A stretch of 64,000 nucleotides of DNA from a virus (taxonomy: Duplodnaviria; Caudoviricetes): positions 64,001 to 128,000 of IMG/VR virus record IMGVR_UViG_3300028591_000074; one strand, 5' to 3'. The position numbers and the translations under genes are program-made. The notes under the pieces were generated by a model. It saw only the letters and a program-made list of their open reading frames with translations, was not told the origin of the DNA and made no database searches. Of the stretch, positions 19,597 to 22,127 are shown piece by piece (within the stretch, counting starts at the first letter, position 1; every line of letters begins with the position of its first letter).

Positions 19597-19644
19597 TTAC
19601 CACCTTTCGTAAAATTTTGATTTTCTTTGATACCGAAAGGGTAT

Positions 19645-19705
19645 CAGGACACCAAATATAGAAATGAGTGGAAGTCATTTGTTTTATATTTGCTGTAGGT
19701 GTCCC
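19645..19705 (-). ncRNA. Y-RNA-like hairpin H3
   Basis: GGGACACC-UACAGC-AAAUAUA...UAUAUUU-GGUGUCCUG. Confidence 0.7.
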
Positions 19706-19709
19706 ATAA

Positions 19710-19823
19710 CGACAAGAACAGGAGTCGAACCTATACCACGCCTTGAACAGAGGAAAAAGAATCGCTGTTAACACCACAGGCATGATGTATTGAATTCGTG
19801 TGCTACCGTTACACCATCTTGTC
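19710..19823 (-). ncRNA. tRNA scaffold T3 with the ACAGC module in place of the anticodon
   Basis: GACAAGA/UCUUGUC acceptor, D- and T-arms; insert ACAUCAUG-CCU-GUGGUGU-UAACAGCG. Confidence 0.75.
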
Positions 19824-19830
19824 AAAAGTT

Positions 19831-19899
19831 CAGGACGCATTCTTTGTTGGGTTACAGATTACAATTCTATTCCAAAAGATGTTTTGCTGTATGCGTCCC
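19831..19899 (-). ncRNA. Y-RNA-like hairpin H2
   Basis: GGGACGCA-UACAGCAA...UGCGUCCUG. Confidence 0.7.
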
Positions 19900-19903
19900 T
19901 TAG

Positions 19904-20021
19904 TCGGCAAGGATGGACTTGAACCACCAACCCTCAGATCCCATTCAAAGTAAGTTGCGGTTTATATCCCAAACAGGATACAATAAAAAATTCTGATGCT
20001 CTACCGTTGAGCTACCTGCCG
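19904..20021 (-). ncRNA. tRNA scaffold T2 with an ACCGC module insert
   Basis: CGGCAGG/CUUGCCG acceptor, canonical D- and T-arms; insert UAUCCUG-UUU-GGGAUA-UAAACCGCAA. Confidence 0.75.
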
Positions 20022-20037
20022 AAATATTAAATTGATT

Positions 20038-20118
20038 CATGACACTGCGAAATGGTGGATAATCGTGCAAAATTCATTGCTTGATTGCCTAACATATTGA
20101 TATTGCTGCTAGTGTCAC
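20038..20118 (-). ncRNA. Y-RNA-like hairpin H1
   Basis: GUGACACU-AGCAGCAA...AGUGUCAUG. Confidence 0.65.
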
Positions 20119-20122
20119 GTAG

Positions 20123-20240
20123 TGGACGGGACTGGATTCGAACCAGTGACCTAAGATTTTACAGATCTTCGCAAAAATTGGCTGTAAGAATCACATACAT
20201 GATTCATTTGCATTACGCTCTACCACTGAGCTACCCGCCC
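20123..20240 (-). ncRNA. tRNA scaffold T1 with the ACAGC module insert
   Basis: GGGCGGG/CCCGUCC acceptor, GCUCAGUGGUAGAGC D-arm, GGUUCGAAUCC T-arm; insert GAAUCAUG-UAU-GUGAUUC-UUACAGCCAA. Confidence 0.75.
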
Positions 20241-21393: not shown

Positions 21394-21465
21394 CAGAGGT
21401 ACTAGGACTCGAACCTAGTCATTCGGGATCAAAACCCGATGCGCTACCGAATACGCTATACCCCT
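21394..21465 (-). tRNA. tRNA-Gln (TTG)
   Basis: AGGGGTA/TACCTCT acceptor, TCGGG-TT TTG AT-CCCGA anticodon arm, G73. Confidence 0.9.
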
Positions 21466-21500
21466 GTGTTACTTAACAATCTCATAACTGATGATAAGCG

Positions 21501-21564
21501 ATGCTAAGGTAGGACTCGAACCTACAACAACCCGTCGGCATTCTTCCAATTGAATTACTTAGCA
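21501..21564 (-). ncRNA. Anticodon-less tRNA-like RNA
   Basis: TGCTAAG/CTTAGCA acceptor, ATTC/GAAT D-arm, CC-GACG-GG stub, GTAGG-TTCGAGT-CCTAC T-arm. Confidence 0.65.
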
Positions 21565-22059: not shown

Positions 22060-22127
22060 TGGCAGGTAGGGAATCGAACCACTACGAAAGTTCCACACAA
22101 TAAGGAGGTTTGTGTTAACTTCTACCA
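22060..22127 (-). ncRNA. Mini tRNA-like RNA displaying an ACCUCCUUA loop
   Basis: UGGUAG/CUGCCA stem, ACACAA-ACCUCCUUA-UUGUGU hairpin, GG-UUCGAUU-CC T-loop. Confidence 0.55.

Follow-up and report, generated by a model that had tools for sequence, protein, structure and literature searches.

A D-arm-less tRNA-like element with a variable anti-Shine-Dalgarno-like loop in a gut phage: a possible punctuation module in front of a structured RNA family

In the phage DNA analyzed here (the window: a 64-kb stretch, bases 64001-128000 of a 253.5-kb gut phage record), a short RNA with the ends of a tRNA carries a hairpin loop which reads like the anti-Shine-Dalgarno (anti-SD) core of the 16S rRNA 3' tail, and the question is whether this loop, or rather the tRNA-like body around it, gives the RNA its role. 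The earlier note on this DNA described an acceptor-like stem with CUGCCA, a T-arm and a single hairpin with a 9-nt loop, with an S1-domain gene just upstream in the same direction. All these parts are present in the sequence, on the minus strand, and the S1-domain gene is confirmed, with a further gene (ORF94) lying between it and the tRNA-like RNA, here called element A. A second RNA, element B, follows. The features are collected in Table 1.

Table 1. Features of the locus, in window coordinates and in the order of transcription of the minus strand.
Feature	Position	Strand	Remarks
S1-domain protein gene	22829-22464	minus	PF00575, E 8e-8
ORF94, 94-aa conserved protein	22454-22170	minus	directly upstream of A; homologues 58-99% identical
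Element A, tRNA-like, 71 nt including discriminator G22058	22128-22058	minus	fold and covariance model
A, acceptor stem, 5' strand GUGGUAG	22128-22122	minus	pairs with 22065-22059
A, lower hairpin stem	22121-22117 with 22092-22088	minus	predicted fold and alignment
A, upper hairpin stem ACACAA/UUGUGU	22115-22110 with 22100-22095	minus	closes the 9-nt loop
A, 9-nt loop ACCUCCUUA, anti-SD-like	22109-22101	minus	variable among relatives
A, T-arm	22085-22066	minus	6-bp stem, bulged U22081, loop UUCGAUU (22078-22072)
A, acceptor stem, 3' strand CUGCCAU	22065-22059	minus	includes CUGCCA (22065-22060)
Element B, ~160-nt structured RNA	22057-21897	minus	begins one base past the acceptor stem of A
Isolated T-arm-like hairpin GAAUUGG-UUCGAAU-CCAAUUC	21876-21856	minus	3' of B
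Perfect sigma-70-type promoter TTGACA-17-TATAAT	21818-21790	minus	starts the downstream tRNA-like cluster
Island of odd tRNA-type genes	downstream of the 21818-21790 promoter	minus
DUF2828/DUF7788 (Ro60-like) gene	19596-18091	minus	2.5 kb downstream of A

Most open reading frames of at least 150 aa in the window lie on the minus strand, and so do all those near element A. The gene order S1 gene, ORF94, (tRNA-like), B is common to all the ORF94 relatives examined; PHROGs gives no function for ORF94 or for the S1-domain protein. The promoter 3' of B, which has an equivalent at the same place in relatives, marks the end of the ORF94-A-B unit. The tRNA-type genes of the window form a remodelled island, separate from the main tRNA bank of the phage (26 genes, at 16-20 kb of the genome). 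At 19710-20240 and 21501-21564 (minus strand) the island contains Rfam tRNA matches with insertions of 49-59 nt in the anticodon region, plus one anticodon-less tRNA. Elsewhere in the genome five tRNA genes (Ser, Tyr, Ser, His, Glu) recur as one and the same block near both ends of the record (C1:16354-16804 and C1:252961-253411), which points to terminally redundant ends or, for a circularly permuted genome, to an overlap in the assembly. The segment just upstream of the DUF2828 gene (19644-19709, minus strand) shows ~71% identity to the same site in two IMG/VR relatives (L003 and L005; blastn E 0.18, not significant); its first ~20 nt are matched at 95% in six further IMG/VR relatives, and it gives a weak, sub-threshold Rfam match to an unrelated family.

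RNAfold predicts for element A a three-way junction, in which the acceptor-like stem meets the T-arm and a two-part hairpin that carries the 9-nt loop. A second, lower stem lengthens the hairpin (6+5 bp), and the loop is predicted to be unpaired in both the MFE and the centroid structures. Comparison with the relatives revised two of the helices: the acceptor stem has 7 bp (GUGGUAG/CUGCCAU), and the T-stem has 6 bp with one bulged base, instead of 2 bp. The apparent CCA of element A is base-paired inside the acceptor stem, and since relatives read CUACCAU or CUACUAC at this place, it is not a free CCA end. The stem is followed by a single discriminator base (G22058) and then by B, the following bases being CGA, with no CCA.

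Among the features typical of tRNA, the 7-bp acceptor stem and the UUCRANY T-loop are found in A, both helices being 100% paired in the eight sequences compared, and the T-arm motif GGTTCRANYCC is present as GGTTCGATTCC at 22080-22070. The D-arm is absent, and the acceptor stem passes straight into the hairpin. The hairpin loop has 9 nt on a 6-bp stem (8 nt in the relatives L012 and L015), in contrast to the 7-nt anticodon loop on a 5-bp stem of tRNA. The combined acceptor and T helix is 13 bp long with a bulge, compared with the canonical 12 bp, and a D-loop, with which the tRNA elbow would form, is absent.

Known families do not account for element A. It is not called by ARAGORN in the standard, intron, pseudogene or metazoan-mitochondrial modes, and no match to it was obtained with the Rfam tRNA model (RF00005), run over 3.1 kb with E values up to 10 allowed. 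No tmRNA was found by ARAGORN in the window or the genome, or by Rfam; a two-piece tmRNA was also considered and rejected, since the 5' strand with which A pairs is its own and ARAGORN gave no call. The YrlA model (RF02553) does not match A; its sole weak hit (20.8 bits versus a gathering score of 69, at 21452-21530) covers two adjacent tRNA-type genes. DNA similarity to GenBank phages was limited to a tRNA-Gln match, and IMG/VR searches with the S1 protein and with the ORF94 alignment returned nothing. A degenerate pattern of A also found nothing in IMG/VR, and one additional homologue (L032) in the JGI metagenomes. The IMG/VR relatives found via the DUF2828 protein (L002-L011) have no detectable homologue of A, B, ORF94 or the S1 gene.

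The single-sequence fold energy of A is unremarkable (z from -1.3 to -1.9), and the support for the fold is therefore taken from comparison. Seven distinct versions of A lie directly 3' of ORF94 and, together with L032 from the pattern scan, give eight homologues, which represent only about five independent lineages. The covariance model built for A (R1) matches the eight with E from 1e-27 to 3e-7, and the phage's own genome contains just one match. In the alignment (A3) 98.4% of the pair cells are standard pairs, versus 38-49% with slid partners; these counts are flattered, as A3 had been fitted to the model. Both sides are changed in five pairs. In the acceptor stem, all seven pairs are standard in all eight sequences, and three of them vary on one side only (GU/GC/AU, UA/UG); its 5' strand GUGGUAG is invariant in the seven phage relatives and reads AUGGUAG in L032. 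In the T-arm, two pairs are changed on both sides (UA to CG, AU to GC), with 100% of the cells paired. The upper hairpin stem shows compensatory changes in L015 (CACAUA/UAUGUG) and L024 (CAUA/UAUG), and the lower stem is kept in L015, in a shifted register, and in L024 (AGUC/GACU). The acceptor stem and the T-arm are unbroken in every homologue. The earlier note had proposed a search for homologues with a covarying stem; the fold is kept in eight homologues with five compensatory pairs, and the structure of A is real and conserved. The distant homologue L032 (L032:4086-4156, JAEEGL013600498.1) has a D-arm and a short GGAG (SD-like) hairpin in place of the CCUCC loop; a hairpin ~150 nt further downstream resembles the 3' hairpin of B, though the B model scores nothing there.

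The loop behaves differently from the scaffold. Taking the window loop (ACCUCCUUA) as the reference, L013 and L012, whose ORF94 is 99% identical to that of the window, read ACCUCCUAA and ACAUCCUA, respectively. The L014-type and L041-type loop is ACCUCCUGA (11 contigs; ORF94 is 95% identical in L014, and L033-L042 fall in the window's 90% cluster), the L015 group (ORF94 73% identical) has UCUCCUGC, and L024 (66%) has a GUCAUG-type loop; in L032, which is not an ORF94 locus, GGAG sits on a short stem. The nearest loops share the form ACCUCCU(U/G/A)A, and the CCUCC core is found only in the window, L013, and the L014-type and L041-type sequences. In L012 the core is broken (CAUCCU plus a 1-nt deletion) despite the 99% identical ORF94; L015 reads UCUCC, L024 has no core. 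On the other side, every variant in the two nearest groups (the window group and L015) retains UCCU despite altered stems.

Among seven close relatives, the loop is variable at 2 of 9 sites (22%), versus 14 of 73 four-fold degenerate sites (19%) in the two upstream genes, a comparison of small numbers (9 loop sites, 7 close relatives). The rest of A is variable at 2 of 62 sites (3%; p = 0.006 versus the four-fold sites), both changes being pair-preserving. The four varying positions comprise two in the loop, one in the loop-closing pair (A-U to G-U) and one in the acceptor stem (U-G to U-A). As the loop changes at the neutral rate and the scaffold is constrained, the substitution pattern indicates that selection maintains the scaffold of A and not the sequence of the loop. 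The loop motif by itself does not exceed what chance can give: on the minus strand of the 64-kb window CCUCCU is found 7 times, where 2.8 occurrences are expected, and ACCUCCUU is found there twice. Internal partners for the loop were also considered. A pseudoknot with the SD-like 5' flank AAGGUGG would form 6 of 7 pairs in the window, but it was rejected, as it shows no covariation with the loop changes of L013, L014 and L015; inspection of B and of the ORF94 ribosome-binding site revealed no convincing complement to the loop.

The surroundings of B show what else can occupy the place of A. In every lineage that has A, it ends one base before B; in the comparison, the start of the B model falls 0-3 nt from the 3' end of A, and true tRNAs stand in the same place at other loci. 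The 5' neighbours of B are almost always tRNAs, odd tRNA-likes or acceptor-like minihelices. True tRNAs are found in L058 (Asn), L074 (Ala), L052 (Gly) and L091 (Thr), and anticodon-less mini-tRNAs, of the same kind as the anticodon-less tRNA of the window, in L078 and L063. Other tRNA-likes precede B in L068, L089, L088, L076 and L092 and at its second copies in L024 and L015, and acceptor-like minihelices ending in ACC in L069, L071, L080 and L093. The 3' end of B usually adjoins a tRNA as well (Gln, Glu, Pro, Ile, Tyr or Phe). Genuine decoding tRNAs must be excised, and B would consequently be released by tRNA processing at those loci.

In L018-L023 the position of A is held by a larger tRNA-like with the acceptor stem GCAGCAG/CUGCUGC, a D-arm and an insert of 60-100 nt, and B comes next; in L021 the T-stem of this tRNA-like (GUAGGG/CCCUAC) is the same as in A. 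The middle module is exchanged between lineages (a 38-nt hairpin in the window, a D-arm with the short GGAG hairpin in L032, a D-arm with inserts of 60-100 nt in L018 and L021), with the acceptor, the T-arm and the position kept. In two further loci (L025:4289-4320 and L029:696-727) a plain 12-bp hairpin with an 8-nt loop stands before B instead of a tRNA-like, and the two hairpins differ by pair-preserving changes. The tRNA-like leader is thus not obligatory. On the 3' side of B in the window, the isolated T-arm-like hairpin has a stem mismatch in L012 and L014, and the CGUACCA which follows it is not conserved; it is probably what remains of the tRNA found on this side of B in other phages. 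In one group of relatives, B and the DUF2828 gene are separated by an inserted IS605 OrfB/TnpB (Cas12f-like) gene (L018:4808-6076, L019:2886-4154 and L020:1968-3236).

Element B itself folds, according to RNAalifold, into a nested structure of ~160 nt with 31 pairs, 19 of which show compensatory changes. The words CAAAU, AGUA(A/G)GU.GG, GC.GAA and GAUGYGYGGU hardly vary among the copies of B, and it has no match in Rfam. The covariance model of B (R2) matches every ORF94 relative and 16 further phage or MAG loci, with one copy in the phage's own genome and second copies in two relatives (L024:6033-6201 and L015:5808-5982); about 26 copies are known in all from this analysis. The 16 further copies comprise 13 in unrelated IMG/VR contigs and 3 in contigs binned as Eubacterium, Lachnospiraceae and Eubacteriales; B is found at L068, L078, L089, L088, L058, L074, L080, L069, L076, L052, L063, L071 and L091-L093. 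The distribution covers gut and rumen phages and MAG contigs of Clostridia. The idea that B is a Y-like partner RNA of Ro60 was rejected, since no DUF2828 gene is found near the 16 other B loci in the sequence examined, and the DUF2828 loci L002-L011 are without B. Element B is an undescribed structured RNA family, and a more promising experimental target than the loop of A.

With a probability of roughly one half, element A is RNA punctuation of tRNA origin: a D-arm-less module at which RNase P and RNase Z cut, so that the ORF94 mRNA is separated from B. The starting points are the fold, the selection pattern and the abutment described above, and from them we infer the transcription, the two cleavages and the enzymes. 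Element A would be co-transcribed with the S1-ORF94 message and the downstream B, and its acceptor/T-arm helix (7 + 6 bp, T-loop UUCGAUU) would be recognized by the tRNA-processing enzymes of the host. RNase P would cut on the 5' side of A, detaching the ORF94 mRNA, and RNase Z would cut after the discriminator G22058, generating the 5' end of B, with the long hairpin acting as a structural spacer in place of the D and anticodon arms. The absence of CCA after the discriminator suits RNase Z. The efficiency of the cleavage and the exact cut site are uncertain, given the 13-bp bulged helix and the missing elbow. The earlier note had proposed a stable, tRNA-processed RNA with an anti-SD role, and one part of this proposal stands: the RNA is tRNA-like and probably tRNA-processed, in view of the compensatory changes in the acceptor/T-arm and of the position of A where genuine tRNAs sit in related arrangements. 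The other part, an anti-SD sponge or mimic of the 16S tail, fails on the variation of the loop in relatives, which the note itself had named as a ground for refutation.

In favour of the anti-SD role, the phage and its likely Clostridia hosts are both SD users: an SD match of at least 5 nt to AAGGAGGUGA is found upstream of 50% of the phage genes, versus 7% at random positions. A mini tRNA-like released from the transcript could pair with the SDs of host or phage mRNAs, or titrate a binding factor of the 16S 3' tail. Among the sRNAs of Firmicutes, targeting of SDs by C-rich loops is an established design. The loop of A is predicted to be single-stranded on its 6+5-bp stem, and CCUCCU is present in 12 of the 13 contigs of the closest group, with CUCCU in the L015 group even though the stems have changed there. 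A precedent for a functional anti-SD mimic is given by OLE RNA (PMC12054373). All the same, L012 has a broken core, L024 has none, and L032 has GGAG in its place; changes in the loop accumulate at the neutral rate, CCUCCU is no rarity on the minus strand, and no CCUCC loop is seen in any other tRNA-like found upstream of the B copies. The phage's own genes rely on SD pairing, so that a generic sponge would strike them too, and no bS21 gene was found in the phage. An anti-SD function of A is not supported, and as a general explanation it is unlikely.

The persistence of UCCU in the two nearest groups may leave room for a function of the loop within that sub-lineage, and a lineage-specific role in SD pairing is likewise judged unlikely. 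In its fuller form, the excised 71-nt RNA would be stable and act in trans, the loop (with its UCCU core; ACCUCCUUA here) pairing with GGAG-type ribosome-binding sites or occupying a factor that reads the 16S 3' tail; this we regard as distinctly doubtful. If it were true, a tRNA scaffold would have been recruited to deliver an anti-SD seed in the sub-lineage of the window, and the fast loop changes among near-identical phages would represent retargeting and not drift.

The same loop can also be read as an anticodon. In this improbable explanation, A would be a tRNA-mimic bait or handle, whose U-CCU-purine loop, comparable to that of tRNA-Arg(CCU), engages an anticodon nuclease of the host defence or a modification enzyme. 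A loop of the form C31-C32-U33-CCU automatically reads CCUCCU, and the likeness to an anti-SD would then be a by-product. Five loop variants read (C/A)U-CCU-(U/G/A), U-CAU-G is one possible reading in L024, and the 37 tRNAs called by ARAGORN in the whole phage genome include Arg(UCU) and Arg(ACG) and no Arg(CCU). The geometry does not agree with such a role: the loop has 8-9 nt, with no way of closing it to 7 nt, the window has a U at position '37', and without a D-loop there is no elbow. The variation does not fit either, the 'anticodon' being fixed while the neighbouring base varies, and L032, L018 and L021 are without such a loop.

That only one base separates A from B, in a conserved S1-ORF94-A-B order, could also mean that A remains uncut, as the 5' tRNA-like domain of a larger A+B RNA (comparable to tmRNA or to a YrlA Y RNA) which serves as a docking module for a protein partner. 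This has little probability, however, since copies of B elsewhere adjoin genuine decoding tRNAs, which must be released, B occurs without A in L025 and L029, and the tmRNA and YrlA searches were negative for A, as given above.

It is very improbable that A is a decaying tRNA pseudogene, or an attachment-site copy of the 3' end of a host tRNA, with no function of its own. The failure of the tRNA finders to call A and the decaying T-arm remnant nearby would be in line with decay, but the stems show compensatory changes across lineages in which ORF94 is only 66-73% identical, and the scaffold is under purifying selection. Neither 185,579 species genomes nor IMG/VR contain an exact copy of the 21-nt 3' end of A, which argues against an attP site or a copy of a host tRNA. 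The alternative of the earlier note, that TAAGGAGG on the plus strand (22101-22108) truly serves a small plus-strand ORF as its ribosome-binding site, can practically be discarded: the 8-mer is a perfect SD, but only TTG 1 nt and GTG 3 nt downstream are available, opening frames of 2 and 8 codons, the ORFs of at least 150 aa near A are all on the minus strand, and the motif is not kept in relatives.

If element A is the punctuation element proposed here, the remodelled, non-decoding tRNA-likes in phage tRNA islands become explicable as punctuation that hands neighbouring RNAs to the tRNA-processing enzymes of the host. Dropping the anti-SD idea removes an attractive but misleading reading. Element A would be best filed as a phage form of tRNA-like punctuation, and the RNA family that it precedes is the more interesting object.

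Several known systems combine a tRNA-like module with another RNA. In MALAT1-mascRNA and in the TMER units of murine gammaherpesvirus 68, a tRNA-like module is fused to a non-coding RNA, and tRNA-processing enzymes set the end of the partner. Element A has in common with them the fusion of a tRNA-like to another non-coding RNA; they are eukaryotic nuclear systems transcribed by pol III or pol II, whereas A would use bacterial RNase P and RNase Z. The tRNA cluster of phage T4 contains the species 1 and 2 RNAs, stable RNAs inside tRNA arrays, which are freed by tRNA-processing enzymes. These resemble B in arrangement, as phage small RNAs within tRNA arrays; what flanks B in the window is not a working tRNA but a remodelled, non-decoding tRNA-like.

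The likeness to OLE RNA concerns the loop. The P6 element of OLE RNA is an anti-SD mimic bound by the ribosomal protein bS21 (PMC12054373), and both RNAs are Bacillota-world non-coding RNAs with a CCUCCU identical to the 16S 3' tail. The mimic of OLE RNA is base-paired to an SD-like strand, conserved, and needed for the binding of bS21, whereas that of A lies in a loop predicted to be unpaired, is not conserved, and is found in a phage without a bS21 gene. The YrlA-type bacterial Y RNAs are tRNA mimics bound by Ro60 (PMC4201824; Rfam RF02553). With them A shares a tRNA-like module in a non-decoding RNA and the vicinity of a Ro60-like DUF2828/DUF7788 gene; its topology is reversed, as both its ends lie at the acceptor stem and not at a Ro-binding stem, and A and B occur without DUF2828 at other loci, as DUF2828 loci (L002-L011) do without A and B.

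The closest described system to A appears, by analogy, to be the t-element of plant mitochondria. The t-elements are non-canonical tRNA-likes with the GGTTCRANYCC motif which direct RNase P and RNase Z cuts at mRNA ends (Forner et al. 2007, PMC1920247), and an excised t-element can persist as a small stable RNA (PMC1920247). Element A differs in belonging to a bacteriophage and not to an organelle, in preceding a structured non-coding RNA and not the coding region of an mRNA, and in its one long two-part hairpin, which replaces the D and anticodon arms; its cleavage is predicted only. What the two have in common is an acceptor stem and a GGTTCRANYCC T-arm within a non-canonical tRNA-like fold; a position between functional RNAs, with ends at the termini of the neighbours where RNase P and RNase Z cut, is described for t-elements and proposed, from comparison, for A.
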